From Bacillota bacterium (GTDB taxonomy: Bacteria > Bacillota > Desulfotomaculia > Desulfotomaculales > Desulfallaceae): DNA of 57,930 nt. Within the stretch, counting starts at the first letter, position 1. Every line of letters starts with the position of its first letter. The DNA is taken from positions 1-57,930 of the forward strand of contig JAKSCU010000104.1 of NCBI GenBank assembly GCA_022360435.1, read 5' to 3'. The translations under genes were made by a program, and so were the position numbers. Below are positions 2-44,258 of this stretch, piece after piece. Below the pieces are notes generated by a model, which worked only from the letters and a program-made list of their open reading frames with translations, was not told the DNA's origin and ran no database searches.

Positions 2-463
2 GGCACCGGCAAGGAACAGACCATCACCATCACCGGTTCCACCAGCCTGGACCAGGGAGAAATAGACCGCATGGTGGGAGAGGCCGAGGCCAATGCGGCC
101 GAGGACAAGAAGCGCCGGGAAGAGGTGGAGGTTCGCAACGGGGCTGACACTTTGGTTTACCAGGTGGACCGCCAGCTCAAAGACCTGGGCGACAAGGTGC
201 CGCAGCATGAGAAGGCGCGCGTCGAGCAGTTGCTGAACGATTTGCGGGCCGCATTGCAGGAAAACGCCCCGGTGGACAAAATACGCGGCCTGAAGAGCGA
301 CCTGGAGCAGGCGGCCCACTCTTTGTCCCAGGCGGCTTACGGCCAGGAAGCAGGCTGCTCCGGTGGCACTTGCGGCGGCGGGGCCGGTAACGCCGGCGCC
401 GGCAGTGCGGGCCGGGTCAAACCCGACGACGATGTGGTGGACGCCGAGTACGAGGAAAAGTAA
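2..463 (+). CDS. dnaK: Molecular chaperone DnaK, C-terminal fragment (5' end lies outside the window)
   Basis: Frame open from base 2. Translation [25 protein letters not shown]...[22 protein letters not shown] is the typical DnaK lid/C-terminal region, with a Gly/Ala-rich tail ending [12 protein letters not shown]. Confidence 0.9.
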
Positions 464-570
464 AAAAGCACGCTCATTCGGTTCCCTCTGCGCGTAATTT
501 TTGATACTCTTATCTTTAAATCCGGCCATTAATATGGCCGTAGTATAACTTTCCCAAGAATATAAGAGAG
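463..570 (-). repeat. Structured intergenic repeat, copy A (inverted orientation), between dnaK and grpE
   Basis: The reverse complement aligns along its whole length with the 5146-5250 archetype: outer arms, inner hairpin CGGCCATATTAATGGCCG, terminal stem ACGC/GCGT around loop GCAGAGGGAACCGAATGA, and a T-run. Confidence 0.8.
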
Positions 571-619
571 CGGCAGGGGAAGGAATTACTGATAAACCCC
601 GGAAAGGGGCGGAAGTATA

Positions 620-1090
620 ATGAAACAAGGCACACGGGCGCGCGGGACGCAGGATGACGGCAGCATCCTGCGCCGAGCGCTGGAAGAGGAAAAAAACCGG
701 CACCTGCGCACACTGGCGGATTTCGACAATTACCGCAAGCGGGTGGAACGGGAGGCGCAAAGCAACGCCGTCCAGGGCAAGAAGGAGCTGGTGGTTGAAC
801 TGTTGCCGGTGCTGGATAACCTGGAGCGGGCCGTGGGCCAGACGCCCGACGAAAAAATGAACCGGGGGCTGGACATGGTTTACCGCCAATTTATGGATGC
901 TTTGCAGAAACACGGGCTGGAGCCGGTGGAGTGCCTGGGGCTGCCTTTTAACCCCGAAGAGCACGAAGGGGTCGGCTACGTGGCCGGCACCGGGCACCCG
1001 GCGGGCCACGTGGCCCAAGAACTTTGCCGCGGGTACCGGTTCGGGCGGGAGTTGCTGCGCCCGGCGGCGGTGCGGGTAGCCGGAGGATAG
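620..1090 (+). CDS. grpE: Nucleotide exchange factor GrpE (short form, 156 aa)
   Basis: LRTLADFDNYRKRVEREA...LLPVLDNLERA...GYRFGRELLRPAAVRV are GrpE signature blocks. The gene lies between dnaK and a J-protein gene. Confidence 0.85.
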   Translation: MKQGTRARGTQDDGSILRRALEEEKNRHLRTLADFDNYRKRVEREAQSNAVQGKKELVVELLPVLDNLERAVGQTPDEKMNRGLDMVYRQFMDALQKHGLEPVECLGLPFNPEEHEGVGYVAGTGHPAGHVAQELCRGYRFGRELLRPAAVRVAGG

Positions 1091-2098
1091 GTGATTACTA
1101 TGGGAGTAACATTTCAGGACTATTACAAAACGCTGGGCGTTGAACGCAGCGCTACTGAAAAAGAAATAAAAGCCGCTTACCGCAAGTTGGCCCGCAAATG
1201 GCACCCGGACCTGCATTCCGCCAAGGATAAGCAGGAAGCCGAGGAAAAGTTCAAGCAGGTTAACGAGGCCTATGAGGTTTTAAATGACCCGGAAAAGCGG
1301 GCCAAGTACGACCGACTGGGCGCCAACTGGCGGGACGGCCAGGACTTCCAGCCGCCGCCGGATATGGGTGATGTAAGGTTTTACACCAACATGGGCGCCG
1401 GCGGCGCCGGCGGGTTCAGCGATTTCTTTGAGATGTTTTTCGGCGGCCGGGGGGCGCCGTTCGGGCGGACCGGCCGGACCACCCGCCCCGGCGGGCCGGT
1501 GCGGGGGCAAGACGTTGAGTCGGAACTGGAACTCACATTGGAGGAAGCCTATCGCGGCGGCGAAAAAACCATACAGCTTTCCAGCCGGGAAGTCTGCCCG
1601 GCCTGCGGCGGCGCCGGCATCGGGGGAGACACATTTTGCAGCCGCTGCGGCGGCACCGGAGCCAATGCCGCCGTAAAGACATTGACGGTAAAAATACCCC
1701 CCGGCGTGCGGGACGGCGGCCGCATCAGGCTGAAGGGCCAGGGAGGCGAAGGTTACGCCGGCGGCCCCGGGGGCGATTTGTACCTGAAAGTGCGCCTGCT
1801 GCCGCACCCGCAGTTCAAGGTGCAGGGCGATGACTTGGAAACCGAAGTGGTTTTGCGGCCCGAACAGGCGGTGCTTGGTGACCGGGTGTCGGTACCCACC
1901 CTGGACGGCACGGTAAAAATGAAGGTGCCGGCAGGCATTCGGACCGGCAAGCGCCTGCGCTTGCGGGGTAAAGGGATGCCGCTTCGGGACGGTCGTGGCG
2001 ACGAGTATGTGCGCGTGGCCATCGATATCCCCGAGCGGCTGAGCCCGGAAGAAGAAGACTTGTATCGCCAACTGGCTGCGCTGAGGAAAGGGGTGTAA
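1091..2098 (+). CDS. J-domain co-chaperone, DnaJ/CbpA-like, with only two CxxCxG zinc-finger motifs
   Basis: J domain with HPD (YRKLARKWHPDLH), G/F-rich linker, CPACGGAG...CSRCGGTG, and DnaJ C-terminal beta domains. GTG at 1091 or ATG at 1100 are possible starts. Confidence 0.85.
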   Translation: MITMGVTFQDYYKTLGVERSATEKEIKAAYRKLARKWHPDLHSAKDKQEAEEKFKQVNEAYEVLNDPEKRAKYDRLGANWRDGQDFQPPPDMGDVRFYTNMGAGGAGGFSDFFEMFFGGRGAPFGRTGRTTRPGGPVRGQDVESELELTLEEAYRGGEKTIQLSSREVCPACGGAGIGGDTFCSRCGGTGANAAVKTLTVKIPPGVRDGGRIRLKGQGGEGYAGGPGGDLYLKVRLLPHPQFKVQGDDLETEVVLRPEQAVLGDRVSVPTLDGTVKMKVPAGIRTGKRLRLRGKGMPLRDGRGDEYVRVAIDIPERLSPEEEDLYRQLAALRKGV

Positions 2099-2102
2099 GC
2101 AT

Positions 2103-2393
2103 ATGGCCAAGTTTTACCTGCAACTGTACTGCCATACCCCGTCCGCGGATGAGGACGCCTGGGTGGATGTCAACGCCCTGGGCATACACCCCGATCTGGC
2201 CCGGCGGCTGGCCGAATTGGGCGTTGTTGATTACAGGCGGGGCTTTATACCTGTGCGCCAGGCGGCGCGTCTGCGCCGGGTGATGCGCCTGCGTCAAAGC
2301 CTGGGGGTCAATCTGCCGGGGGCGGCTATCATAGTGGACCTGCTGGAGCGGGTGGAAGAATTGCAGGATGAATTGGAACGGCTAAAAGGATAG
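2103..2393 (+). CDS. CbpM/HspR-like MerR-type chaperone modulator (96 aa)
   Basis: The C-terminal block RLRRVMRLRQSLGVNLPGAAIIVDLLERVEELQDEL resembles CbpM / HspR (MerR_2) proteins. It sits immediately downstream of the J-protein gene. Confidence 0.6.
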   Translation: MAKFYLQLYCHTPSADEDAWVDVNALGIHPDLARRLAELGVVDYRRGFIPVRQAARLRRVMRLRQSLGVNLPGAAIIVDLLERVEELQDELERLKG

Positions 2394-2483
2394 GGGACGC
2401 TCCCTCTGCTTGAGGGTAAGGCTTTGGGTTGAGGAATGCCCCCGACTTAGGAGGTGAACACCCGGGCAGGCCCGGGTTTGACT

Positions 2484-5093
2484 ATGGATATGAACCGTTA
2501 CACACAAAAATCGAGGGAAGCTCTTTCCACTGCCCAACAGCTGGCGGCCCAGAGGCGCCACCAGGAAGTGACGGGCAAGCACCTGCTGGCGGCGCTTTTG
2601 GCCCAGGAGGGTGGCATGGCCCCCCGTATTCTGGAGCACGCCGGGGTCAACCCCGTCCAGCTGACCGCGGCGGTGGAGGAACTGCTGCAAAAGATACCGG
2701 CGGTCACCGGATACGAAGGTTCCCTGCGCCTGGGCGCCGGGCTGGCCCGGGTGCTGGGCCGCGCCGAAAAAGAAGCCAAGGGGATGAAGGACGATTACGT
2801 CAGCGTGGAACACCTGCTGCTGGCCCTGCTGGAAGACGGCGAGCCCGAGGCGGTGACGGCGCTGCGGCGCTCGGGCTTGTCCCGGGACGCCCTGCTGAAT
2901 TCGTTGCGGGCGGTGCGGGGCAACCAGCGGGTCACCGGTGAGAATCCCGAGGATACCTACGAGGCGTTGGAGCGCTACGGTCGCGACCTGACCAAACAGG
3001 CGACCGAGGGCAAGCTGGACCCGGTCATCGGCCGGGACAACGAAATCCGCCGGGTGATGGAAATACTGTCCCGGCGCACCAAAAACAACCCGGTGCTCAT
3101 AGGCGAGCCCGGCGTGGGCAAGACCGCCATCGTGGAGGGCCTGGCCCGGCGCATTGTGGCCGGTGATGTCCCCGAAGGCCTGAAAGACAAGCGCCTGATG
3201 GAGCTGGATATGGGAGCCCTGGTGGCCGGGGCCAAGTACCGGGGCGAGTTTGAAGAACGGCTGAAAGCCGTGCTGAAAGAAGTGCAGCAATCCGACGGCA
3301 AAATTATCATGTTCATCGATGAGCTGCACACTGTGGTGGGCGCCGGGGCGGCCGAGGGCGCCGTGGACGCCGGCAACCTGTTAAAGCCCATGCTGGCCCG
3401 GGGCGAATTGCGCACCATAGGCGCCACCACTTTGGACGAATACCGCAAGCACGTGGAAAAGGACGCCGCGTTGGAGCGGCGCTTCCAGCCCGTGCTGATT
3501 AGCCAGCCAGCGGTGGAAGACACCATCTCTATCCTCAGGGGTTTGAAAGAGCGCTACGAGGTGCACCACGGGGTGCGCATCCAGGACAGCGCCCTGGTGG
3601 CGGCGGCCATGCTTTCCGATCGTTATATTTCCGATCGGTTTCTGCCCGACAAGGCCATCGACCTAATGGACGAATCGGCGGCCCGCCTGCGTACCGAAAT
3701 CGACAGCATGCCGGCGGAGCTGGACGAAATTACCCGCAAGATTATGCAGCTGGAGATCGAGGAAGCAGCCCTGGGCAAGGAGAAAGACCAGGCTTCCCGG
3801 GACCGGCTGGAAAAAATCAAGCAACAACTGGCCGAGTTGCGCGGCGACTCAGACGCCATGAAAACCCAGTGGCAGGTTGAGAAGCAGGCCATATCCCGGG
3901 TACGCCAGTTGAAGAAGGAAATTGAGGAGACCCGCCAGGAAATAGAGAAAGCCGAGCGGGACTACAACCTGGACCGCCTGGCCGAGCTGAAGTACGGCAA
4001 GCTGAACGAACTGGAACGCCGCCTCAAGGCCGAGGAGGAAACTCTGGCGGGCAAACAACAGCACGGTATGCTGCTGAAAGAGGAAGTGGACGAGGAAGAT
4101 ATCGCTCGGGTGGTCAGCCGCTGGACCGGCATCCCGGTTAGCAAGCTGATGGAAGGCGAAAAGGAAAAGCTGATCCGCATGGATGAGGAACTGCACAAAC
4201 GGGTGGTAGGCCAGGATGAGGCGGTACGGGCGGTGGCCGACGCCGTGCTGCGCGCCCGGGCCGGGATTAAGGATCCCAACCGGCCCATCGGCAGTTTCAT
4301 CTTCCTGGGTCCCACTGGCGTGGGTAAAACCGAGCTGGCCCGGGCTCTGGCCCAGGCGTTGTTTGACGACGAGCGCAACATGACCCGGCTGGATATGTCC
4401 GAGTACATGGAAAAACACGCCGTCTCCCGGTTGGTGGGCGCACCTCCGGGTTATGTGGGATACGACGAGGGCGGCCAGTTGACCGAGGCGGTGCGGCGCA
4501 AACCTTACTCGGTAATCCTGTTGGATGAAATTGAAAAAGCCCACCCCGACGTGTTTAACATACTGCTGCAGCTGTTGGACGACGGGCGGCTTACCGACGG
4601 GCAAGGCCGCACCGTGAACTTCCGGAACACCGTGGTGATTATGACTTCCAACTTGGGCAGCCACGAAATCCTGGCCCGGCAGGAGCAAGGAGACAGCTTC
4701 GAGCAAATCAAATCCGGCGTGCTGGGCATCCTGCGCCAGCATTTCCGGCCCGAGTTTCTGAACCGGGTGGATGAAATAGTGGTGTTCCACGCGCTAAGCA
4801 AGGCCCAGGTGCGGGAAATTGCCGGCCTGCTGTTGGAGCGGCTGGACCGGCGGGTGGAAGCCGGCACCGGCATCAAGTTGGCATGGGACGATGCCGCTCT
4901 TAATTACCTGGCCAACCGGGGCTATGAGCCGTCCTACGGCGCGCGACCGCTGAAGCGTCTGATCCAGCAGGAGGCGGAAACCGCCATCAGCCGGATGATT
5001 GTCAGGGGCGATGTGCGGTCAGGAGAAGTCCTTGTTTTACGGGGTGTCGACGGCGCTCTGCTGATTGAAAAAAATAAACGCGGGGACGATTAA
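2484..5093 (+). CDS. clpB: ATP-dependent disaggregase ClpB
   Basis: Two AAA+ modules (GEPGVGKT and GPTGVGKT Walker A), a coiled-coil middle domain, and N-terminus [14 protein letters not shown]. The ORF is open back to GTG 2454, but that codon abuts the SD AGGAGG (2448-2453), so ATG 2484 is preferred. Confidence 0.93.
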
Positions 5094-5120
5094 AGCTATT
5101 ACACACAAAAAACACTTGGA

Positions 5121-5151
5121 GAACAGGTGCTCGTCGGCCCTGTTCTTTTTT
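5121..5151 (+). terminator. Rho-independent terminator of clpB
   Basis: GAACAGG (5121-5127) / CCTGTTC (5139-5145) stem followed by TTTTTT. Confidence 0.7.
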
Positions 5152-5250
5152 ATACTCTTAGGTAATTATACCCGGCCATATTAATGGCCGGATTCAAGGA
5201 TAAGAGTATTAAAAGCGCACGCAGAGGGAACTGAATGAGTGCGCTTTTTT
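5146..5250 (+). repeat. Structured intergenic repeat, copy B (archetype)
   Basis: T-run, ATACTCTTA, inner hairpin CCGGCCAT-ATTA-ATGGCCGG, TAAGAGTAT (complement of the first arm), AAAA, stem GCGCAC/GTGCGC around loop GCAGAGGGAACTGAATGA, T7. Confidence 0.85.
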
Positions 5251-5348
5251 TATACTCTTAGGTAATTATACCCGGCCATATTAATGGCTGGATTCAAGGA
5301 TAAGAGTATTAAAAAGCGCACGCAAAAGGAACTGAATGAGTGCGCTTT
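5245..5348 (+). repeat. Structured intergenic repeat, copy C (head-to-tail with copy B)
   Basis: Near-identical to copy B. The inner hairpin has one change (ATGGCTGG) and the loop is GCAAAAGGAACTGAATGA. It shares the T-run with the end of copy B. Confidence 0.85.
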
Positions 5349-5486
5349 AATTAAAAGTAATCGGTAAACCTGATAAATAAATATTGTTTTGCACAATGTT
5401 TCGACAATATTCCTGAAGGGAACCGTTCCGGGGTTGTCGAAAGTAACCACGCTTACATTGCATTTATCGCCCGCGGAGGTGAAATT

Positions 5487-7358
5487 ATGCGTAGCGCCGG
5501 GCAAAAACAGGAACGGCTGCTGGAAGAGTTGGAACGGCTGCTGGAAGAATTGGAACGGCTGCGCCGGCAAAACGCTGAATTAATGCTGTACAAACATGCC
5601 TTGGACCAGCTTCCCGTGTGCACCACCCTTTACGATCATACCGGCAAAGTAAAGTATAGAAACCGGGCCGCCAAGGATGTCGACGGCTATGACAACTGGG
5701 AGTTGGTGGGGCTTACCAGGGAAGAGTACCTGCGGCGGCTTATAGCGACCAACCGTGGCCGGTCAAAGGTCATGATTTCACCACCGGCGGCCGATAGTTT
5801 ATACAACGGAATATACGAACTGGATGAAGCCACCCTGATTGCCAGGGGCGGCGTTAACAAACAGGTGCTGCTGGCGGGCAGCTTTGTTTATAATAATGAA
5901 GACTACCTTCTGGGTACCTGCGACTGTACATTTGATGTTTCGCCTTACGCCCGGCAAAACAGCGCCCATGTTTTGCAGCGCCTGATGGATATAATTTTCA
6001 TTCCAGTGTTTCACAAGGATGCTCGGGGATTCTACAAAAGCTGCAACGCGGCTTTCGAGAAACTAACCGGCTTGTCCAGATCCAAAATCATAGGTAAATC
6101 TGTATTTGATCTTTATCCCCGGGATTTGGCCGAAAAATATCATGAAATGGACACCAAGCTTTTTAAAAATCCGGGCATACAAGTTTATGAAACCAATGTT
6201 CCCAGCGCCAACGGAACTAGACATGACGCTATCCTGACCAAATCCACATACCTGAACGCCGAGGGTGAGGTAGCCGGCCTGGTGGGGGTGATAACCGACA
6301 GATCCGAACATAAACGTGTGGAAAAAGAACTGAGTTTTTCCAAGGAAAAATTTATGAAAATATTTGACGCCAGCCCCGGCTCCATGGCGATAATGACCAG
6401 GGACGGCAGAATTACTGAAGCCAACAGGAGCTTTATAATTTCTTCTTGTTACAGCACGGACGAAGTGATTGGTAAAAACGTCAAGGAACTCAATGTGTTT
6501 GCAAACCCCGAAGAACACTATGCAATTATAAGCATCTTAAATAGTGACGGCATTGTAACAAATCGTGAAGTTGGTTTTCGCAACAAGTTTGGAGAACCCG
6601 GAGTGGGGTTGCTATCCGCTGAAATGATTGAGCTGGACGGGGAAGAGTGTATACTGGCGGTGGTAATCGATATAACAGAGCGCAAACGTTTAGAACGGGA
6701 AATGGCCCGTCTGGACCGGATGAACCTGGTGGGACAGATGGCTGCCGGCATCGGCCACGAGATCAGAAATCCTTTAACAGCTGTGCGGGGATTTTTGCAG
6801 CTTCTGACAGGTAAAGAGGAGTGCAGTCTTTACGAGGAATACCTTAACATAGCCATCAGCGAACTGGACCGGGCCAATGCCATTATAACCGAATTCTTGT
6901 CTCTGGCCAGGGACAGGCCGTTGCACTTGCAAAAAAGGAACATAAACGATATTATTAAGGTTCTTTTTCCGCTGATGCACGCCGACGCCACCATTTCCGG
7001 CAAACATATTGAAATGTTGCTGGGGGAGATACCCAAAATGCCCATTGACGAAAAGGAGATTCGCCAGTTGATTCTCAACCTGGTGCGCAACGGTATGGAA
7101 GCGATGCCGAAAGGCGGCCGTATGCAGGTAAAGACGTACCAAGACGGCAATGCGGTAGTTCTCGCGGTGAAGGACGAGGGCTTCGGCATTAAATCGGCCA
7201 TACTGGAAAGGCTGGGCACCCCGTTTTTAACCACCAAGGATGAAGGCACAGGTTTGGGTTTGGCGGTATGTTACAGTATTGCCGGCAGACACAATGCCAC
7301 CATTGATATAAAAACATCCCCCTCGGGAACCACCTTTTATGTTCGGTTTGGCAAGTAA
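5487..7358 (+). CDS. Cytoplasmic PAS-domain sensor histidine kinase (sporulation-kinase-like)
   Basis: SD GGAGGTG lies 5 nt upstream. Features: N-terminal coiled coil, PAS repeats, H-box HEIRNPLTAVRGFLQLL, N box LVRNGMEAM, G boxes DEGFGI / GTGLGLAV. No TM segments. Confidence 0.9.
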   Translation: MRSAGQKQERLLEELERLLEELERLRRQNAELMLYKHALDQLPVCTTLYDHTGKVKYRNRAAKDVDGYDNWELVGLTREEYLRRLIATNRGRSKVMISPPAADSLYNGIYELDEATLIARGGVNKQVLLAGSFVYNNEDYLLGTCDCTFDVSPYARQNSAHVLQRLMDIIFIPVFHKDARGFYKSCNAAFEKLTGLSRSKIIGKSVFDLYPRDLAEKYHEMDTKLFKNPGIQVYETNVPSANGTRHDAILTKSTYLNAEGEVAGLVGVITDRSEHKRVEKELSFSKEKFMKIFDASPGSMAIMTRDGRITEANRSFIISSCYSTDEVIGKNVKELNVFANPEEHYAIISILNSDGIVTNREVGFRNKFGEPGVGLLSAEMIELDGEECILAVVIDITERKRLEREMARLDRMNLVGQMAAGIGHEIRNPLTAVRGFLQLLTGKEECSLYEEYLNIAISELDRANAIITEFLSLARDRPLHLQKRNINDIIKVLFPLMHADATISGKHIEMLLGEIPKMPIDEKEIRQLILNLVRNGMEAMPKGGRMQVKTYQDGNAVVLAVKDEGFGIKSAILERLGTPFLTTKDEGTGLGLAVCYSIAGRHNATIDIKTSPSGTTFYVRFGK

Positions 7359-7869: not shown

Positions 7870-8775
7870 TTACGTCCAAAAGCTGTGAAAAAAAGACAAG
7901 TAGAACAGGGAATCGTCTCCTGTATAGGCAAAAGGCTTGTTGTATTCAATTTTCTTTACTTCGAACTTATACCAGTTGAAATCGCCGGTTTTTAATTTCC
8001 ATATCACGTCTCCCCGGGTGGGAACCCTTATTCCGTCAAATTCCCCGTATTCCTTCACCGGGATCGACCATGTTTCCAATGCGAACTTTCCATCGAATTC
8101 CCCATATCTTGGGGCAATAAAATTAATCACCTGGCCTTTTTCGTTAAAATGAAATACTCCTGACGCGGTGATCCCTGCATAGCTCATGGTCGCCCTGGCC
8201 GAGCGGCCGTCTATTTCTTCCCATGTAATGTGGTTGCTTAATGCCGCAGTAGGAATCCACATGGTCTCGGCAAGGTATCGTACCAAAGAGCCCTGGTCTG
8301 TCTCTTCTCCCTTGGAGTTTGCAACCGTTGCCAATGAAAGAAATTTGATCAGCACGTTTCCTTTGCCCGCATGATATTTGTCCCTGGCTCCAATATGCAT
8401 TAGCGGGGCGGCTTTAACCTTTGCTATCCAAATATATCCCGGCTTGTCCACAGTAAAATACTGCTCGGCTTCAAGGGGCATCCACCGGCCTTCTTTTTTC
8501 AGCCTCATTACCGCAGTTTGTTTTAAACGAGCGGTGGTAATTCTTTCTTTTCCGATCACCTGGGAGTAGACAAGCCATTTTTGAACGCTGGGCGGCAGCT
8601 CGGCCAAGTCGGATTCTTGTATAATTTCACCTTTATCTTCGATACCTGTAAAAAAATCACCGACTTCTTTTTTGGCCTTTTGGTTAAACGTAATATTTGC
8701 TATGTGCGATATTGTTAAAAATGCCGCAATAATGGCTGCCAGAACACCAATAACCATAAGTGGAATTTTGGGCAT
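7870..8775 (-). CDS. Membrane-anchored protein of unknown function (301 aa)
   Basis: SD AAAGGAG upstream of the ATG. N-terminal TM helix (IPLMVIGVLAAIIAAFLTI) followed by a soluble beta-rich domain. Codon usage is coherent although the region is AT-rich. Confidence 0.6.
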   Translation of the reverse strand: MPKIPLMVIGVLAAIIAAFLTISHIANITFNQKAKKEVGDFFTGIEDKGEIIQESDLAELPPSVQKWLVYSQVIGKERITTARLKQTAVMRLKKEGRWMPLEAEQYFTVDKPGYIWIAKVKAAPLMHIGARDKYHAGKGNVLIKFLSLATVANSKGEETDQGSLVRYLAETMWIPTAALSNHITWEEIDGRSARATMSYAGITASGVFHFNEKGQVINFIAPRYGEFDGKFALETWSIPVKEYGEFDGIRVPTRGDVIWKLKTGDFNWYKFEVKKIEYNKPFAYTGDDSLFYLSFFHSFWT

Positions 8776-9155: not shown

Positions 9156-9217
9156 TCTAGTCTTACCTCCTTCCTAATATTAACATACTATTATTCTGCA
9201 CCTATTTCAATCAATAT

Positions 9218-9270
9218 AAAAAAAGTATCCGGCCATATTTTGACCGGAATCAAGGGAATAAGTATAGAAA
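9218..9270 (+). repeat. Degenerate partial copy (I) of the structured repeat
   Basis: AAAAAGTAT-CCGGCCATATTTTGACCGG-AATCAAGGGAATAAGTATA matches the inner hairpin plus ATTCAAGGATAAGAGTAT segment of the archetype. The terminal hairpin is missing. Confidence 0.45.
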
Positions 9271-9291
9271 TGCATGTATTGAAGGAACTAA

Positions 9292-10635
9292 CTAAAGCGC
9301 GCATTTTTTGTTGGTTCTGGTCCAAATGTTCATCTTGGCGGCTTCGGCCACCAACTCGTCGTGGAAATCGGGGTGGGCCAATTGGATGAGCGATTCGGCC
9401 CGTTCCCAGGTGGATTTGCATTTCAAGTTGGTGATGCCGTATTCCGTGGCCAGGTACATTACCGTGGAGCGGGTGGTGGTGACGATGGTGCCCGGGTCCA
9501 GGGTGGGCCTGATACGGGAGTGCAATTGCCCGTTTTTATCCTGATAGGTGGAGGGCAGGCAGATAAAAGCCTTGCCTCCCTTGGAAAGATAAGCGCCTTC
9601 CACGAAGTCCACCTGCCCACCGGTGCCGCTGATCTGGCGGCAGCCGAAAGACTCCGCCGCCACCTGGCCGTATAGATCCACCTCCAGGGCGCCGTTAATG
9701 GATATAACTTTGTCGTTTTGGGCTATGATGTGCGGGTAGTTGGTGTAGTCCACCGGATAGGAAGCCGCCGCCGGGTTGTTGTCCAGGAAATCGTACAGCC
9801 GCCGGCTGCCCAGGGCAAAGGTGAACACCATTTTACCCCGGTCGATTGTTTTGCGTTGGCCGGTGATTTTACCGGCTTCCCACATGTCCAGGTAGGCATC
9901 GCAAAGCATTTCGGTATGGGCGCCCAGGTCTTTCAGGTCCGATTGGGCAATGAGCTTGCCCAAAGCGTTGGGCATACCGCCTATGCCCAGTTGAATACAG
10001 GCGCCGTCCTCAATTTCATTCATTATTAGCGCGGCTATTTTCCGGTCGGTTGCCGTGATGGGCATTTCCGGTATGGGAGGAACATTCCAGTCGGCTTCCA
10101 CCACCATGTCCACCTCGGAGATGTGGATGGATTCGTTGTTGCCGCCTTGTACCCGGGGCAGCTTGGGGTTGACTTCCACAATCACACGGTCCGCCATATC
10201 CAGGACGTTGCGGGTGAACGTGTTGGACAGCCCGTAGTTAAAGAAACCATGCTTGTCCATGGGCGCCACGGCTATCATGGCTGCGTTGGACCGGGTAAAT
10301 TGGGCGTAGCTGGGACACTCCCGGAACAAGATGGGTATATAACTGCAGAGTCCGTAGTCATGTATCCGCCGGTCGATAAGCGTAAAGTGACCACTGTTGA
10401 AAATAAAGCTCTCCCGCTTGGGGTCGACCAGCACAACCATTGGGGGGCCGTAAACCCTGGCCGCCGAACGGATGCTGACGTTTTCCAGTTCCCCCTTTCG
10501 GTTGGCCAGGGCTTTGTCCAGCTCAACCACCTGGTTGGCGAAGGTCCCGTAGTCCACCAAGTGGCCCGATTCTATTACTTTTACCGCCTCGCCGGCAGTC
10601 ACCAGTTTGGATTGGTAATCTGTTGCGTGTTGCAT
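9292..10635 (-). CDS. Acetyl-CoA hydrolase/transferase family protein (4-hydroxybutyrate / butyryl-CoA:acetate CoA-transferase-like)
   Basis: 447 aa, with family blocks such as GIGGMPNA and SGTGGQVDFVEGA typical of Cat2/AbfT-type CoA-transferases. Confidence 0.85.
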   Translation of the reverse strand: MQHATDYQSKLVTAGEAVKVIESGHLVDYGTFANQVVELDKALANRKGELENVSIRSAARVYGPPMVVLVDPKRESFIFNSGHFTLIDRRIHDYGLCSYIPILFRECPSYAQFTRSNAAMIAVAPMDKHGFFNYGLSNTFTRNVLDMADRVIVEVNPKLPRVQGGNNESIHISEVDMVVEADWNVPPIPEMPITATDRKIAALIMNEIEDGACIQLGIGGMPNALGKLIAQSDLKDLGAHTEMLCDAYLDMWEAGKITGQRKTIDRGKMVFTFALGSRRLYDFLDNNPAAASYPVDYTNYPHIIAQNDKVISINGALEVDLYGQVAAESFGCRQISGTGGQVDFVEGAYLSKGGKAFICLPSTYQDKNGQLHSRIRPTLDPGTIVTTTRSTVMYLATEYGITNLKCKSTWERAESLIQLAHPDFHDELVAEAAKMNIWTRTNKKCAL

Positions 10636-12148: not shown

Positions 12149-13555
12149 CTACCGCATCCTGTCCAGTTTCCTGTACAGCACCGAACGGTGGATACCCAAT
12201 AACCGGGCGGTCTCTTTTTTATTGTGGCCCGTGGCGGCCAGCGCGTGCAATATGGCTCCTTTTTCCGCCTCTTCAATCACTTCCTGCAGCGACCGGATGG
12301 AATAACGGTCCGGTGGCAGGCATTTAAGTTGCCTTTGCAGCCGCTTTTTCAGCACCGGAAAATCGTGCTGGCGCAGTGTTTCTCCTTCGCCCAGGTTTGC
12401 TGCCTGCTCAAGGAAGTTTTCCAGCTCACGCACATTGCCGGGCCAGTCGTACTGTAAGAATAATTGCATAACTTCGCCGGAAACACCCGTGACTGCAGCC
12501 CCCAGGCGGCGGTTAAGCTTGTTGAGCAAATGCCTGGTCAGGTCCGGGATGTCTTCCTTGCGTTCCCGCAGTGGCGGCACTTGCAGCAATACCACGTTAA
12601 GCCGGTAATAAAGGTCGTCCCGAAACTGCCTGGCCAGGATCATCTCCTCCAGGTTTCGATTGGTGGCGGCGATTACACGCACGTCCACCGATACCGGCGG
12701 TCCGGTGCCGCCCACCCGCTCAATCTCCTTCTCCTGCAGAACCCGCAGTAGTTTGGCCTGCATGGGTCCGTTCATGTCCCCGATTTCATCCAGGAAGATG
12801 GTGCCCCCCTGGGCAATTTCGAACTTGCCCACCTTGCCGCCCCGTTTGGCGCCGGTAAAAGCTCCTTCCTCGTAGCCAAATAGTTCCGATTCCAATAGAT
12901 CCGTGGGAATGGAGGTGCAATTCACCCGCACGAAGGCGCGTTCCCGCCGCGGGCTGGCGTTATGAATGGCGTGGGCGAAAAGCTCCTTGCCCGTGCCGCT
13001 TTCGCCGGTAATCAGTACGGTTGACGAAGTCCGGGCCACTTTGCCGACTTTTTGCTTTAGCCTGATTATTTGCCCGCTTTGACCGGTGATGTTGGTGGCG
13101 TTGTACTTGGCCCTTCGCTCCTGGTCCAGCTCGGCCCGGTAACCGGCCAGTTTGCTTTCCAGTTGTTTAATCTTCCGGGCGAAATCCCGGGCCATGGTCA
13201 TCTCGTCTCTGAACATACTCCTTCCCAGCACCCCGATAATCTTACCGTCTTTTTCGATGGGCAGCCTGGTTACCGCCACCTGGCGACCATTGATGTTCCA
13301 AATGTCACCGTATTGCGGCCGGCCGCTTTCCAGCACCTCGGGCAGTCGCGTCTGGGGTACGGCTTCCCTGACGGGGCGGCTGAGGAACTCTTCGGGGCTA
13401 CCTCCCAGGAACTCGGCGTAACCACGGCTGATGAAGCGGATAATGCCGCCGGCGTCCACAATGATAACCCCTTCATAAGGGTTGTCCAGGACAGCCGCCA
13501 GGAATTCGTTACTGATTAAAGGATTGGTGGTTTTCCCGTTATTCATATCACTCAC
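12149..13555 (-). CDS. Sigma54-dependent transcriptional activator with N-terminal PAS domain
   Basis: PAS domain, AAA+ module with GESGTGKE Walker A and the GAFTGA loop, and a C-terminal Fis-type HTH (TARLLGIHRSVLYRKL). Confidence 0.9.
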   Translation of the reverse strand: MSDMNNGKTTNPLISNEFLAAVLDNPYEGVIIVDAGGIIRFISRGYAEFLGGSPEEFLSRPVREAVPQTRLPEVLESGRPQYGDIWNINGRQVAVTRLPIEKDGKIIGVLGRSMFRDEMTMARDFARKIKQLESKLAGYRAELDQERRAKYNATNITGQSGQIIRLKQKVGKVARTSSTVLITGESGTGKELFAHAIHNASPRRERAFVRVNCTSIPTDLLESELFGYEEGAFTGAKRGGKVGKFEIAQGGTIFLDEIGDMNGPMQAKLLRVLQEKEIERVGGTGPPVSVDVRVIAATNRNLEEMILARQFRDDLYYRLNVVLLQVPPLRERKEDIPDLTRHLLNKLNRRLGAAVTGVSGEVMQLFLQYDWPGNVRELENFLEQAANLGEGETLRQHDFPVLKKRLQRQLKCLPPDRYSIRSLQEVIEEAEKGAILHALAATGHNKKETARLLGIHRSVLYRKLDRMR

Positions 13556-16464: not shown

Positions 16465-16519
16465 TTTGTCACCCCGTTGTTGTTTTCAATACAATCGGAC
16501 AGTTTTTGGTTTTTAATTT

Positions 16520-16612
16520 GAAAAGTATTACCAGGCCATGTTTATGGTACGGAATCAATTAAAAAAGTATTAAAAAAACGCGCGGAGGGAACCAAATGAG
16601 CGCGTTTTTTTT
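16520..16612 (+). repeat. Structured intergenic repeat, copy D (degenerate 5' half)
   Basis: CCAGGCCATGTTTATGGTACGG hairpin, AAAAGTATTAAAAAAA, stem CGCGC/GCGCG around loop GGAGGGAACCAAATGA, T8. Confidence 0.7.
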
Positions 16613-16699
16613 GTCGTTCCTGTAAATTATTTCACCATAAATAAGAGCATGTCCTGCCAATACTTGAAAAAATTATGCGCTTACTGTTAATAAGCGTAA

Positions 16700-16804
16700 T
16701 TTTTTTATACTTTAGAAAAGTATATCTTGCCATATATATCAAGGGCATAAAGGAAAAAAGTATTAAAAAGCGCACGCAGCGGGAACCGATGAGTTGCTTT
16801 TTTC
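16700..16804 (+). repeat. Structured intergenic repeat, copy E (subfamily 2)
   Basis: TTTTTTTATACTTT...CTTGCCATATATATCAAGGG...AAAAGTATTAAAAAGCGCAC-GCAGCGGGAACCGATGA-GTTGC-TTTTTT. Confidence 0.8.
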
Positions 16805-16812
16805 ATTATCCC

Positions 16813-16861
16813 TTGACCACATGGTCAATAAGTAGTATATTGATATTGACCAGGTGGTCAA
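16813..16861 (+). promoter_or_regulatory. Two copies of a perfect 7-2-7 palindrome (candidate TetR operators)
   Basis: TTGACCA-CA-TGGTCAA (16813-16828) and TTGACCA-GG-TGGTCAA (16846-16861), centres 33 bp apart, directly upstream of or overlapping the start region of the TetR gene. Confidence 0.55.
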
Positions 16862-16877
16862 AAGGCGGTGGTTTATA

Positions 16878-17510
16878 TTGAAAAAGAGAAAGTCCCGGGT
16901 TTTGACTGAAGAAAAAAAGGAGCAGATATTTCAGGTTGCCCTTAAAGAGTTTGCTGAAAAGGGTTATGAGCAGGCTTCGACAAATACCATCTGCAAAGAG
17001 GCCGGCGTAGCCAAAGGATTGCTTTTCCATTACTACGGGAGTAAAGGGGGGCTGTATTTAAGCTTACTGGATAAGGGAGTGGACAAATTTATGCAGATCT
17101 ATGACAAAATGCTGCCTCAACTGGCTCCTGATATTCTGAAACGTATAGAGCAGATATTGGAGTTAAAGATACGATTTTATTCAGAAGATTCTCTGTTTAG
17201 CAGTCTTTTAGTTAATGCTTTTATTGATATCCCGACAGAGCTTGAGGGTGAGATTAGAAACAAGCTGAACAGGATGTACGAGAAATATCTGCCCCGTCTT
17301 TATGAACATCTTGATTATGAGGTGTTTCGGGATGGTATTGACCCTCAGAAGGCTATTGAGTTTGTTGGCCTGATCACAGATGCTCTGAGCGAAAAGTATA
17401 TAAAAGCTTACAAGAGCACCGGAGACAAAAAATACCTCAACCTGGAAAGTATAAAAGTCGAGATGGAAATATATCTGGATATGCTCCGCAAGGGTATCTA
17501 CAAAGGTTAA
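16878..17510 (+). CDS. TetR/AcrR family transcriptional regulator
   Basis: N-terminal HTH (EKGYEQASTNTICKEAGVAKGLLFHYYGSK). The ORF is open from 16854, but that codon lies inside the second operator palindrome, so TTG 16878 is preferred. Confidence 0.85.
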   Translation: MKKRKSRVLTEEKKEQIFQVALKEFAEKGYEQASTNTICKEAGVAKGLLFHYYGSKGGLYLSLLDKGVDKFMQIYDKMLPQLAPDILKRIEQILELKIRFYSEDSLFSSLLVNAFIDIPTELEGEIRNKLNRMYEKYLPRLYEHLDYEVFRDGIDPQKAIEFVGLITDALSEKYIKAYKSTGDKKYLNLESIKVEMEIYLDMLRKGIYKG

Positions 17511-25914: not shown

Positions 25915-26002
25915 TATTAGTACCTCCACTAATCAAATTATTACTATAATCTCTCTAAAGTATTTAAGAAATTAGACGTATTTTTGCATAAAAAAGTTTC
26001 AT

Positions 26003-26105
26003 TTTTTATACTCTAGAAAATTATACCATGTAATATATATGGCAAGGACAAAGGAAAAAAGTATTAAAAAGCGCGCTTAGAGGGAGCCGAATGAGTGCGC
26101 TTTTT
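26003..26105 (+). repeat. Structured intergenic repeat, copy F (subfamily 2)
   Basis: TTTTTTATACTCT...CCATGTAATATATATGGCAAGG...AAAAGTATTAAAAAGCGCGC-TTAGAGGGAGCCGAATGA-GTGCGC-TTTTT. Confidence 0.8.
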
Positions 26106-26262
26106 AATTAAAAATTAGTTAATATTTCTAATATTACATCTAACCTCCAGAGTCAAACTTACAATATGGTGCTTGCATGTTTTTAAAAAATATGTTACAA
26201 GAAAATTGTCAGAATAGAGTATCTAAAATACCAGTTGTGGATATTAATGGGAGATATAAAAA

Positions 26263-36165: not shown

Positions 36166-36247
36166 TCCGGCCATATTAACGGCCGGATTCAAGTGTAAAA
36201 GTATTTAAAAGCACGAGCAGAGGCAACGAATGAATGCGCTTTTTTTA
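36166..36247 (+). repeat. Structured intergenic repeat, copy G (5'-truncated)
   Basis: CCGGCCATATTAACGGCCGG-ATTCAAGTGTAAAAGTATTTAAAAGCAC-GAGCAGAGGCAACGAATGA-ATGCGC-TTTTTTT. Confidence 0.7.
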
Positions 36248-41191: not shown

Positions 41192-41313
41192 CACCGGCCA
41201 CACCGGCAATACAGGCATCCTTTTATGATATAAAAAAGGTGCCTGTATTTTTGTTTGATGGGAAAATAGCATGCAAGGACTATTATCATTTATAATTGTG
41301 CCTGTCATAATCG

Positions 41314-41455
41314 AAAAGCGTGCACAGAATGGAAACAAATGAGTACGCTTTTTTTATACTTTTAGGAAATTATACCTTGCCATATATATGGCAAGGGCAG
41401 AGGAGAAAAGTATTAAAAAGCGCACGCAAAGGGAACCAAATGAGTGCGCTTTTTA
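41314..41455 (+). repeat. Structured intergenic repeat: orphan terminal-hairpin module (H0) followed by full copy H (subfamily 2)
   Basis: H0: AGCGTGC-ACAGAATGGAAACAAATGA-GTACGCT-T7. H: ATACTTTT...CCTTGCCATATATATGGCAAGG...AAAAGTATTAAAAAGCGCAC-GCAAAGGGAACCAAATGA-GTGCGC-TTTTT. Confidence 0.8.
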
Positions 41456-41468
41456 ATAGGTGGGGAAT

Positions 41469-42359
41469 ATGGGCGTTTTTTCTCTTTATTTCACAACTGT
41501 TGTCATCTGGGGCACAACTTGGCTGGCGATAGAATTACAATTAAATCAGGTGGACCCCATTTTGTCTGTCGGTTATCGATTTATTTTTGCAGCAATTTTT
41601 TTAATTATATTCTGCCGAATTCGCAAAATCTCTTTAAATTTTTCCATAAAGGACCATCTTATAATTGGTTTACAAGGCATTACATTGTATGGCTGTAGTT
41701 ATTGCTTAATTTATATGGCCAGCCAATACCTTGTTAGCGGAATAGTGGCTGTTATATTTTCCACCATTTTGGTCATCAATATTTTAAATCTTCGCTTTTT
41801 TTTGGGTCAAAGTGTAAGTCCGGCCACTTTGTTTGGCGGTGTTTTAGGTTGCGTCGGAATTGGATTGGTTTTTTGGCCGGAATTATCAGCCTTTAGAATT
41901 AACGAGGGTGTAATTGGTTTGATTCTAGCCATTTTGGCCACCTATTCAGCTTCTATCGGCAATATTATTGCCGTCTATATTTCCGCAAGGCAGATTGGTG
42001 TAACACAGGCTAATACCCTTGGAATGGCTTATGGCGGAATTTTAGTTTTTGTATTTGGTTTTTTTGCCACGGGAGAAATTCAGTTTAGCTTTTCTCTTGA
42101 CTATTTAGTTCCACTATTATACTTGTCCATTTTTGGTTCGGTGATTGCGTTTGGCTGCTATATAACCCTAATTAATCGAATTGGAGCCGATCGAGCCGCA
42201 TATGCAATAATATTAAACCCCATTCTTGCATTATTGTTGTCAACTTTTTATGAAAACTACAAATGGACGGATTTAGCGCTTATAGGAGTTGTTTTAATTG
42301 TTCTTGGCAATGTTATTGTACTAATTCCCGCGAGTAAATTTAGGCAACTTATTGGTTAA
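41469..42359 (+). CDS. DMT-superfamily (EamA) transporter, AT-rich
   Basis: About 10 TM helices, two EamA halves. The ORF is open from GTG 41460. Its base composition is markedly AT-rich compared with flanking genes. Confidence 0.75.
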   Translation: MGVFSLYFTTVVIWGTTWLAIELQLNQVDPILSVGYRFIFAAIFLIIFCRIRKISLNFSIKDHLIIGLQGITLYGCSYCLIYMASQYLVSGIVAVIFSTILVINILNLRFFLGQSVSPATLFGGVLGCVGIGLVFWPELSAFRINEGVIGLILAILATYSASIGNIIAVYISARQIGVTQANTLGMAYGGILVFVFGFFATGEIQFSFSLDYLVPLLYLSIFGSVIAFGCYITLINRIGADRAAYAIILNPILALLLSTFYENYKWTDLALIGVVLIVLGNVIVLIPASKFRQLIG

Positions 42360-42494
42360 CCAATTTTATCCAGCTTAAATCTTAACAAAACACGTTAAAT
42401 TAGCAAGTGCTTTTATTCTTAAGAGAATTTTTTAAAAATGAAGAAACTACTCTAAATGGCAAGTGAATTTGAAAAGCAAAATAGTGCTGTACCT

Positions 42495-42929
42495 TTACTT
42501 CATGTCTGCAAGTAAGTGATTACATAATTCGACATAAATTGATTGCATTTTGAGGCTTAATATTAAATATTTTGGATTTACAGATGATGGTAAAAATTGA
42601 CTGCAATAAGACGCAAACTCGTTATATCTTGGAATGCTATCAGAATAAACTGCCGTGAAGGGTATTTGATATAAGGAAAATAATTTTTTAGCATCATCTT
42701 TTTGTATTTTTATAAAATTTATAGATATTTCATCATATGGTTCAGTAGATACTTTATTTTTTAAACGAGAATTCATTGCCCGAAGAATAGCTATTAATAC
42801 GCGAGTTTCGTCCTCTGTTATTTGATGATCCAAAATTTGCATAAAAAAAGGATAACGATCACTATTAATAATCATTGTTAAAATCTTAATATTATATTTT
42901 AGCATTTGAATTTCTTTTTCAATACTCAT
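42495..42929 (-). CDS. Hypothetical protein (144 aa), tentatively DUF1878/YhaI-like
   Basis: The N-terminal pattern IQMLKYNIKILTMIINSDRYPFFMQILDHQITEDE resembles my recollection of YhaI-type proteins. AT-rich. Confidence 0.45.
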   Translation of the reverse strand: MSIEKEIQMLKYNIKILTMIINSDRYPFFMQILDHQITEDETRVLIAILRAMNSRLKNKVSTEPYDEISINFIKIQKDDAKKLFSLYQIPFTAVYSDSIPRYNEFASYCSQFLPSSVNPKYLILSLKMQSIYVELCNHLLADMK

Positions 42930-43037
42930 TCTCTAAGCTCCTTTATAATGGGTAGGCCAGATAATCTTGTAAGGTTCGTAAGCTGCACAGTTAATACCAC
43001 CTGTAAATTTGCTCAAGAGTTTATATTCCTAACTACT

Positions 43038-43454
43038 CTAAATCATAACAAAACATATTGCCCAAGCGATTGCTCTTGCGGATGAATTTGGAATCCCTAG
43101 TTCAAAAATCATGAAGTCAATCAATCTCGCTTCAAAAGAATCGGAGATGCTCTCTAAAAAATCTGCAATTTCATTTGCATGCTTTTTTAAATACTTTCCG
43201 TGTTTTGGACTTATAAGCCCTACAATTTCATCAAGTGCTTCTCCACCATGTCTTAAGGCAAAAACAATAACATTTTTTTTAAATCCCATTATTTCAGCAG
43301 AACTTTCTTGCCTATTCTCAATCTGCTGATTATTTTCAACTATCCTAGTTACGTTTGTTTCAGGAGCCTTAGCGGCAAATACAAAGGTCGGAAAAAATGT
43401 TGAAAAAACAAATGAAATTGTTAAAATTAATGATATTATTTTTAGGTTTTTCAT
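43038..43454 (-). CDS. Secreted/lipid-anchored hypothetical protein (138 aa)
   Basis: Signal peptide MKNLKIISLILTISFVFSTFFPTFVFA. AT-rich. No recognisable motif. Confidence 0.5.
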   Translation of the reverse strand: MKNLKIISLILTISFVFSTFFPTFVFAAKAPETNVTRIVENNQQIENRQESSAEIMGFKKNVIVFALRHGGEALDEIVGLISPKHGKYLKKHANEIADFLESISDSFEARLIDFMIFELGIPNSSARAIAWAICFVMI

Positions 43455-44258
43455 AAAATATCCCCTTTAAATATAATATTTGGCATATCTGGCCACCCAA
43501 GGTTAATTTATATCAATTATGGAGATAAAGTCAATTATATAATTTCGACCTTTTATGAGTTTTTCATGGCTGTTTAGTTAAATAATTTATATATGACCGT
43601 CATGGGCGCTGTTTGTAGGGTAAAACCGATTTGTTGAATGGTCGTAAACACGTGACAATACCCAGCTGAATTAGGTTAAGCCTGTTCTTCTTATTATCAC
43701 TCGGTAAAATAATAACAATTAATAGAAAACATCCTTTCTTGGTTGTGCTGTTGTGGTGACTGCATTTTACCCAAAAAGGCGTGTTTTCTTTTTGTTTTTA
43801 ACTAATAAAAGTTGGCTTAAACTCTATTTTATAAGAATTGGATTAACTTTTGAACTATGAAGATTGACTTAATTACTTAACAGGAGTCAAATCCAGTTAA
43901 ATTTTTCTGCTTGCATGGCAAAAAAAGGAAGCGAGTTGCTAAATAAGGTTTATTAAGAAATTGCATTTGGAGCATACAACAGGGCTCGAATCTGGAGTTG
44001 AACTGAAGAGCGTTGTGTCATAATTGTCCTGCGGGTTCGAGTGAAGGTTTTAGAAAGGCGACGTATATATCTTGCGTAACTTTTACTTTGCTTCCTTGTT
44101 GCGGATAATACAATAAGCAATCACTCCAAGGTCGTTATCGTCTGCGGTATCAGTCATTTTTTTTGCTCATTTCCCGGCATAAAAATAGCTTCGGGCGGCG
44201 CATTGAAGGTGTGCGGCGAGGCTATGCTAATAGCACAGAAAAAGCGGAAGGTGGTTAA

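Follow-up and report, generated by a model that had tools for sequence, protein, structure and literature searches.

Why a short repeat should change its sequence from copy to copy and still hold its helices is the question raised by a 57.9-kb stretch of DNA, referred to here as the window, which is a whole contig (JAKSCU010000104.1) of a metagenome-assembled genome (MAG) of a Desulfallaceae bacterium. Near position 16,700 it carries one copy, the focal copy, of an intergenic repeat which the original prediction took to be under selection as a folded nucleic acid. Our data indicate that this repeat is probably a non-autonomous mobile small interspersed repeat, adjacent to terminators, whose helices are kept by compensatory changes. 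It is a previously undescribed family, but one of a known sort of selfish repeat and not a new kind of system, and the focal copy is a decaying member of it.

A three-helix repeat with covarying stems

Copies in the window were located with nhmmer and a covariance model (CM), using a profile built from five full copies. The profile matched nine copies and one fragment with E-values from 1e-34 to 7e-3 (Table 1), nine of these ten being on the plus strand and all of them intergenic, within an ordinary Bacillota chromosome segment. An 18-mer conserved in the repeat occurs five times in the window against 0.07 expected, and with these matches the presence of the predicted family, and of the sequences quoted for it, is confirmed.

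An intact unit consists of three stem-loops: P1, the outer helix, is rich in A/U; P2 is an inner hairpin; and P3, at the terminus, is a hairpin rich in GC. In its short form the unit is about 107 nt long. Read 5' to 3' on the sense strand, an upstream T-run is followed by the left arm of P1, ATACT(C)TT(A), by a GGAAAGTATAC-like junction, P2, a junction containing AAGGA, the right arm of P1 and P3; the 5' end of the repeat reads (G/A)(T/C)ACTTTAGG. P2 is a perfect 8-9-bp hairpin with a 4-nt AT loop. P3 is made up of an A-run, a 6-bp GC stem, a loop of 16-18 nt (RAGGGAACYRAATGA), the returning stem and a T-run, with T5-7 directly following the hairpin. The loop is nearly invariant, in other genera also, while the stems vary, in agreement with the earlier observation that the loop inside the terminal stem stays almost constant. 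The A-run and T-run on its flanks make P3 resemble an intrinsic terminator. A canonical intrinsic terminator has a GC-rich stem and a loop of 3-8 nt followed by a U-tract; P3 has the stem and the U-tract, and it is the longer loop that keeps a consensus terminator scanner from calling it. The copy at 5145-5251 folds at -38.8 kcal/mol (z -6.2 relative to shuffles) and that at 41350-41456 at -36.8 kcal/mol (z -6.9), with the separate hairpins of intact copies at -13 to -14 kcal/mol for P2 and -15 to -16 kcal/mol for P3. The GC content of the element is 0.32-0.47, compared with 0.55-0.62 in coding regions.

Two subfamilies had been proposed to differ by compensatory changes that preserve every helix. 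Subfamily 1 has the inner hairpin CCGGCCAT/ATGGCCGG and outer arms ATACTCTTA/TAAGAGTAT, and subfamily 2 the inner hairpin CCTTGCCAT/ATGGCAAGG and outer arms ATACTTTT/AAAAGTAT. The differences between them are truly compensatory: in P2 a G-C pair is replaced by U-A and one extra pair is formed, and in P1 C-G stands against U-A. Preservation of every helix holds for the intact representatives, but not for the focal copy or the copies at 26003, 9218 and 36166, which are broken, degraded or truncated. The terminal-stem variants were quoted correctly; they are, however, specific to copies rather than to subfamilies, as the copies at 5146 and 41350 both have GCGCAC/GTGCGC. Nor do the subfamilies cluster by position, being interleaved along the window instead. 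The differences are concentrated in P2 and the adjoining junction, and part of the subfamily difference may be due to exchange of a whole hairpin module rather than to stepwise compensation. In the focal copy, P2 has lost 2 nt and folds at only -1.4 kcal/mol, compared with -13.0 kcal/mol for the intact P2 at 41375-41396, P3 is weakened to -11.1 kcal/mol (z -1.3), and the copy as a whole has a z of -1.4.

Covariation was assessed with a CM of 27 pairs (R1), to which 32 sense-strand copies were aligned, including 24 from other genomes and metagenomes. In this alignment 91% of the cells are paired, and compensatory two-sided change is present in 17 of the 27 pairs. Column shuffles gave 7.1±1.6 such pairs, slid partner columns 3-8, and a tree-aware null 6.5±1.9, with 17 attained in none of 500 replicates of either the shuffles or the tree-aware null. 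The latter was our own R-scape-like simulation, based on a neighbour-joining tree, per-column parsimony rates and independent columns. As a CM alignment leans towards the structure that was modelled, the count was redone on a structure-blind MAFFT alignment of 20 copies. Nine pairs with two-sided change were found there, compared with 5.5±1.5 from column shuffles (14 of 500 attaining the observed value) and 4.5±1.7 from the tree-aware null (3 of 400), a weaker signal than that of the CM alignment, while double-change cells numbered 29 against 10.3±2.7 from shuffles (0 of 500). With the same alignment and the tree-aware null, window copies alone gave 5 pairs against 1.8 (7 of 400) and non-window copies alone 6 against 2.6 (4 of 400). 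The phylogenetic null is thus exceeded in the CM alignment, the MAFFT alignment and both subsets, and the folded-nucleic-acid interpretation stands.

RNAalifold, run on the MAFFT alignment, predicted P2 and P3 unaided, without P1, and added a covarying pair (G81-C120) which brackets the A/T runs and is G...C in metagenome copies and A...T in the window. G·U intermediates are present between the Watson-Crick states, with pair 178-200 occurring as G-C, G·U and A-U, and pair 43-144 as C-G, G·U and A-U, and the compensations recur both in independent genomes and within one genome. Covariation, predicted fold and G·U intermediates together support the original prediction of selection on a folded nucleic acid as opposed to simple decay. 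Since many resident copies are decaying, this selection seemingly acts on which copies propagate. Wobble pairs on the sense strand number 27 G·U versus 12 A·C in P2 and P3, 11 versus 17 in P1, and 38 versus 29 over all helices, a total that is not decisive for strand. For P2 and P3 these counts mildly favour the sense strand as the one that folds, which fits P3 being a sense-strand terminator, and they are compatible with both RNA and single-stranded DNA.

Placement behind terminators and evidence of mobility

In approximately 19 of the 27 copies with an intact 5' end, P1 begins at the very next base after a T-run that belongs to a strong hairpin. This preceding hairpin is the intrinsic terminator of the upstream gene, as with clpB in the window, where the copy at 5144-5251 begins right after the T-run, or with CCCCGCC-TGCC-GGCGGGG-T6 in L012 (loci outside the window are given an L and a number), and insertion is in the same orientation as the host terminator. 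In most copies the 5' end abuts the T-run and then A or G; window copies have A after the T-run at both ends and metagenome copies have G at both ends, with no copy-by-copy match. The hairpin and T-run are the target and not part of the element, as both are already present in the empty site of L006. Because the element itself ends in a terminator-like hairpin and T-run, head-to-tail tandems can accumulate, and such tandems are found at 5144/5244 and 41310/41347 in the window and at 236/280 in L021, the preceding hairpin in these cases being the P3 of the older copy.

Copies without the 5' part are those at 36166 and 41310 (a solo P3) in the window, one in L010 and one starting at 233 in L021. 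The copies at L010 2706-2760 and L021 233-285 start at the same position in the element, (GA)TTAAAGTA, which lies exactly at the stop codon of the upstream gene, and their right P1 arm and P3 are the only visible terminator of that gene. No 3'-truncated copy was found, a left-half profile included, which is weak evidence given that retrieval outside the window was anchored on P3.

Evidence of mobility comes from L006, from the MAG OH_HBrB_152, and L008, from the metagenome assembly Ga0209164, which are 92-96% identical over several kb. L008 has an extra long-form copy at 12859-13011, and L006 is empty at the same place. The sequence at the site is ..GGCGGTGTGTTATTTTG|CGGCAGG (..ATTTTG|CGGCAGG) when empty and ..TCATTTTG|TACTTTAG...GCGCGCTTTTCTTGTA|CGGCAGG (..ATTTTG|TAC...CTTGTA|CGGCAGG) when filled; no target duplication of 3 bp or more is seen in this one pair. 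At a second site, common to both loci, a short form stands against a long form with a different P2 and nearly identical P1 and P3, so that either modules were exchanged or the site was used more than once. On a wider scale, approximately 150 kb of syntenic DNA (the dnaK...clpB...NAGPA region) from seven relatives with 87-91% identical ClpB contains no copies, compared with six in the matching stretch of the window and ten in the whole of it. The intergenic DNA of these relatives is too diverged for base-by-base alignment, and what is demonstrated at the window copies is absence of the element, not exact empty sites.

Other properties seen in the repeat are small size, no open reading frame (ORF), many copies, intergenic location and presence/absence polymorphism. 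Its neighbouring genes are functionally unrelated, and it lies in all orientations relative to them, mostly co-directionally. The full unit has no terminal inverted repeats, as the right arm of P1 is internal, approximately 45 nt inside the 3' end, and the 3' terminus is P3 with its T-run. There is no transposase among the 40 ORFs of the window. An autonomous parent element was sought with left-half (P1/P2) and right-half (P3) profiles, and these searches gave no isolated ends flanking an ORF.

Outside the window, a search with a 22-nt degenerate pattern from the loop and stem of P3 recovered the same architecture in Sporotomaculum syntrophicum FB (Desulfallaceae), at three sites in the Bacillota MAG OH_HBrB_152, in the Clostridiales MAG Soudan_19, and in 17 metagenome stretches, mostly from the assembly Ga0209164. 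Each genome has its own consensus of the repeat: metagenome copies have GTACTTTA/TAAAGTAC, CTGGCCAT/ATGGCCAG and GCGCGC/GCGCGC-TTTTCTT, whereas window copies have ATACT(C)TT(A), CCGGCCAT or CTTGCCAT, and GCGCAC/GTGCGC. Pattern matches in L004 and L011 (Flavobacteriales) were rejected as chance matches. No match was found in IMG/VR, the INPHARED phages or the PLSDB plasmids, and a phage or plasmid origin was rejected on this basis. The family belongs to Desulfallaceae-like Bacillota, and it is strongly expanded in the genome of the window; we found no report in the literature of such repeats in relatives of Desulfotomaculum or Pelotomaculum.

Nine copies are of a long form of approximately 150 nt, in which a nested hairpin of approximately 44 nt (CAGCGGTCAGGGGACAC..CCTCC-TTCG-GGAGG..TGTCCCCAACTT) lies inside the P2 loop. 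A second palindromic unit, ..GGTCAGGGGACAC..CCTCC-TTCG-GGAGG..TGTCCCCAAYTT.., also stands alone at L013 2836-2887, and the long form is therefore most plausibly the result of nesting, a second small palindromic repeat lying inside the first. In L016 the nested unit is itself duplicated and nested. A hairpin GGGGACAC..GTGTCCCC is also found 3' of clpB in L027 and L028.

Table 1. Coordinates of repeat copies and related features (window positions unless a locus is named; the profile column gives the match of the five-copy profile)
Feature	Position	Strand	Profile match	Details
Focal copy, subfamily 2, decaying	16699-16806	+	16699-16808	P1 16707-16714 with 16756-16763; P2 remnant 16726-16744 (2 nt lost); weakened P3 16765-16803; 5' end adjoined by upstream hairpin 16684-16698 and T-run 16700-16706
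Intact subfamily-2 copy	41347-41457	+	41347-41457	P1 41356-41363 with 41406-41413; P2 41375-41396, perfect 9-bp hairpin; P3 41415-41454 (A5, GCGCAC, 18-nt loop, GTGCGC, T5)
Solo P3 remnant of an older copy	41310-41355	+	41311-41353	T-run is the insertion point of copy 41347
Intact subfamily-1 copy	5144-5251	+	5144-5249	P1 5152-5160 with 5201-5209; P2 5172-5191; P3 5211-5248
Host intrinsic terminator of clpB	5121-5151	+		GAACAGG..CCTGTTC then T6; copy 5144-5251 sits behind it
Second subfamily-1 copy	5244-5352	+	5244-5352	Head-to-tail tandem with 5144-5251, 94% identical; T-run of first copy common to both
Subfamily-1 copy	462-569	-	569-462	Sole minus-strand copy in the window; dnaK-grpE spacer, antisense; G·U pairs in P1 (sense strand of the element)
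Heavily degraded copy	9204-9309	+	9226-9308	44.9 bits
Degenerate copy	16505-16612	+	16517-16611	CGCGC/GCGCG terminal stem; P1 and P2 weak
Subfamily-2 copy	26000-26107	+	25999-26107	P2 broken (3 mismatches); P1 one mismatch; P3 intact
5'-truncated mosaic copy	36166-36247	+	36166-36247	Without left P1 arm; subfamily-1 P2 and subfamily-2 right arm (AAAAGTAT)
Nested unit in long-form copies	L003 3947-3975; L008 12509-12539 and 12932-12962; L009 1888-1918; L013 6432-6460; L015 3319-3349; L016 2874-2943; L017 8370-8398; L019 5763-5791			

Mechanism and competing explanations

The mechanism we prefer is hairpin-dependent transposition of single-stranded DNA in the style of IS200/IS605 or REP-RAYT (repetitive extragenic palindromic sequences and their associated tyrosine transposases), in which a single strand would have to fold correctly for recognition and copying by an enzyme acting in trans. 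The fold would matter because correctly folded copies alone would be recognised and copied. [quoted passage not shown] The hairpin and T-run of a host terminator would mimic the element's own right end. Once inserted, P3 most likely acts at the RNA level as an extra or replacement terminator, and this would make sites behind genes tolerable and P3 the best-kept module. Resident copies would then decay, as the focal copy has.

Several observations weigh against this mobile-repeat interpretation. The subterminal hairpins P2 and P3 are unlike each other, contrary to the ends of IS608-type elements, and no transposase, RAYT or reverse transcriptase was found in the window or the fetched loci. Only one filled/empty pair is available, and the two extra bases (TA) at its right junction are unexplained. 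For 29 of 34 copies the G-rich strand is the sense strand of the element, a bias that is confounded with gene orientation. RNAalifold failed to predict P1 from the MAFFT alignment, and the mismatches in the two outer pairs of this helix are A·C rather than G·U. Finally, the P3 loop is conserved across genera and resembles a Shine-Dalgarno sequence plus ATG, which could mean a host or RNA function.

A related but rather unlikely scheme is that the repeat is a 'terminator-homing' non-autonomous retro- or single-strand element, a bacterial unit of approximately 107 nt resembling a short interspersed nuclear element (SINE), served by an enzyme in trans that recognises a hairpin and T-run as group IIC introns do. 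The transcript or single strand would end in its own terminator hairpin and U/T-tract and would be copied precisely behind other terminators. Junctions precise to the nucleotide, the absence of terminal inverted repeats and of a visible target duplication, the head-to-tail tandems, and the copies truncated at the 5' but never the 3' end all fit this scheme, and none of them proves it. If it were true, ready-made terminators would be spread through the genome.

That the repeat is instead a structured RNA of benefit to the host, such as a small RNA, a 3'-UTR (untranslated region) element or a protein-sponge RNA, appears improbable. This explanation would give the P3 loop (RAGGGAAC..AUGA) and the AAGGA junction a role in binding, with the ribosome or a GGA-binding protein, CsrA for instance, as possible partners. 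Covariation above the nulls, the excess of G·U over A·C in P2 and P3, a loop near-invariant across genera while stems vary, the defined 3' end that P3 supplies and the tolerance of a variable-length insert in the P2 loop, as in many functional RNAs, would all be in keeping with this. Against it, no sigma-70-like promoter is found in or just before the element, the upstream neighbour usually being a terminator; the repeat is absent from the syntenic loci of close relatives and differs in copy number by orders of magnitude between genomes; many resident copies have decayed; flanking genes are unrelated and orientation to them is mixed; and there is no conserved ORF and no Rfam family match. For the whole window, Rfam 15 gave no match at gathering score. 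A known RNA family was also rejected by E-value searches of window 5090-5400 and L009 1800-2050, which returned only chance matches driven by the terminator-like hairpin, at E of at least 0.3 and with scores well short of gathering score, and no tRNA or tmRNA was found. In all copies (for example at 5221-5238 and 41426-41443 of the window) the P3 loop reads GAGGG-N7-ATG, resembling a ribosome-binding site plus start. A small ORF from this ATG was rejected, as the frames are short (4-8 codons), inconsistent between copies and out of frame with neighbouring genes, and a dedicated 5' leader of particular genes was rejected because neighbours are unrelated and orientations mixed.

Two further explanations operate on the DNA alone. 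Compensatory change could arise with no selection on the fold, if intrastrand template switching perfected quasi-palindromes, or if hairpin modules were exchanged or gene-converted, and a few master copies were then amplified. P2 is indeed perfectly palindromic around an AT centre; at one orthologous locus L006 and L008 differ in the entire P2 module, with almost the same P1 and P3; copy 36166 combines both subfamilies as a mosaic; and subfamily differences are concentrated in P2 and its neighbouring junction. We nevertheless give this little credence, since G·U intermediates between Watson-Crick states are not expected after template correction, and since covariation extends to P3, across a conserved 16-18-nt loop, and to the G81-C120 pair bracketing the A/T runs, with compensations recurring in independent genomes and within one genome. 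An array of double-stranded binding sites, serving as operators for a dimeric regulator or a nucleoid protein, is highly improbable. The symmetry of P2 and P1 and an intergenic location sometimes just upstream of genes would suit such sites, but an operator should keep its sequence and not symmetry alone, whereas here the stem bases covary, the best-conserved part is the asymmetric P3 loop, flanking genes are unrelated, and a 44-nt insertion at the centre of P2 is tolerated.

The family provides a new, well-supported and structure-conserving small repeat for the poorly studied anaerobic Desulfallaceae-like Clostridia, together with a covariance model and approximately 40 copies. In the annotation of MAGs such copies can pass for small RNAs, riboswitch-like leaders or true terminators.

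Neighbouring features and relation to known elements

The genes of the window include dnaK-grpE-dnaJ-merR/hspR-clpB, histidine kinases, TetR and GntR regulators, EamA transporters and others. The heat-shock cluster dnaK-grpE-dnaJ-MerR(HspR-like)-clpB, at 71-5093, is syntenic in all fetched relatives, and the ClpB of the window shares 85-91% identity with that of Peptococcaceae bacterium BRH_c8a, Desulfotomaculum sp. BICA1-6, Desulfallas and Desulfoscipio. Several other intergenic features were seen. Close to the focal copy are two 16-bp perfect or near-perfect palindromes, TTGACCACATGGTCAA and TTGACCAGGTGGTCAA, at 16813-16828 and 16846-16861 (33 bp start to start), the former lying between the focal copy and a TetR-family ORF (16854-17510) and the latter spanning the start of that ORF; they are probably the TetR operators. 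Between clpB and the next gene is an inverted repeat, TTCGACA-N28-31-TGTCGAA, found at 5400-5441 in the window and at approximately 2853-2897 in L030, 10190-10222 in L027 and 12745-12785 in L025, where the next gene encodes a PAS histidine kinase (window, L027 and L030) or is a small unannotated ORF (L025). This repeat is kept across relatives despite otherwise unalignable intergenic DNA, and could be a regulator site or a leader structure. An AT-rich island at 42000-44000 (GC 0.32, compared with 0.5-0.6 around it) contains a 39-nt direct repeat in three copies (42376, 42880 and 43039), together with small ORFs on the minus strand, one of which weakly matches DUF1878. A GC-rich palindromic repeat of another kind, the GTAGGGCACCC..GGGTGCCC type, occupies the dnaK-grpE spacer of L025 (approximately 7975-8055) and L029 (approximately 5895-5975), the same spacer in the window carrying the present repeat family instead. 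Intergenic spacers in this clade seem to have been colonised by several repeat families.

By kind, the closest analogue of the repeat is SPRITE of the pneumococcus, and bcr1 is also similar. SPRITE is an AT-rich, terminator-like element of approximately 105 nt, bracketed by AAAA and TTTT, which lies near gene 3' ends and for which neither a target duplication nor a parent insertion sequence is known (PMC3049150). The two share length (approximately 105 and 107 nt), AT-richness compared with the host genome, a stem with a U-rich tract behind it and AAAA and TTTT on its flanks, a location close to gene 3' ends, the lack of a matching insertion sequence or demonstrable target duplication, and nesting or clustering with other small repeats. 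They differ in that SPRITE contains a single duplex, of 18 bp, and an extended U tract, whereas our repeat has three helices, a terminator-like stem of 6-11 bp and a conserved 16-18-nt loop, with a nucleotide-precise junction behind host terminators, and belongs to Desulfallaceae-like Clostridia. The comparison with SPRITE was made by description (PMC3049150), and sequence homology is deemed unlikely. Among the Group A bcr repeats of the Bacillus cereus group, bcr1 is approximately 155 bp, is transcribed and has 5-bp direct repeats on its flanks (PMC3184786). Like our repeat, bcr1 is a non-autonomous Bacillota repeat with a non-conserved distribution between related strains and a multi-stem fold kept by compensatory changes, single copies of which repeatedly lose stability (PMC3184786). 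Unlike bcr1, our repeat shows no duplication, and has a terminator-like module and terminator-adjacent insertion.

With REP/BIME-RAYT (REPIN) sequences and palindrome-associated elements derived from IS200/IS605, the repeat shares the character of intergenic hairpins believed to be folded as single-stranded DNA (PMC2817692, PMC3733652), as well as the lack of terminal inverted repeats and of a visible target duplication, covarying stems, and a strand or orientation bias, which here is confounded with gene orientation. In contrast to REP sequences, which are GC-rich palindromes of 20-40 nt with a GTAG or CGTC tag, no such tag lies beside P2 or P3, units are arranged head-to-tail and not as inverted doublets, and there is no Y1 transposase among the annotated ORFs of the window. 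It is also distinct from IS200/IS605 in that P2 (CYGGCCAT/ATGGCCRG, with its 4-nt AT loop) is unrelated to P3 (GCGCRC/GYGCGC, with its 16-18-nt loop). With classical MITEs our repeat has in common its small size, the lack of an ORF, many copies, an intergenic location and presence/absence polymorphism, but MITEs have terminal inverted repeats at both ends, whereas in our repeat the left arm of P1 is terminal and its partner lies approximately 45 nt inside the 3' end.

In choice of target the resemblance is to group IIC introns, which insert just downstream of intrinsic terminator motifs, that is an inverted repeat followed by Ts, and in the orientation of the terminator (Toor et al. 2006, PMC1702495). 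Our repeat has this same preference for sites just behind an intrinsic terminator in the same orientation, but the introns are ribozymes of at least 600 nt, usually with a reverse-transcriptase ORF, while the repeat is 107 nt without intron domains and has no Intron_gpII or other group II match in Rfam. In a 2024 review of prokaryotic MITEs, SPRITE is the sole terminator-like element named and terminator-targeted insertion is not described (PMC10969869). If precise placement behind terminators holds genome-wide, the repeat would be a small non-autonomous element that selects its targets in a way known to date from group IIC introns. In that case it would offer a natural system for the study of terminator hairpins as DNA targets, and of mobile 'spare terminators' that shape operon boundaries.

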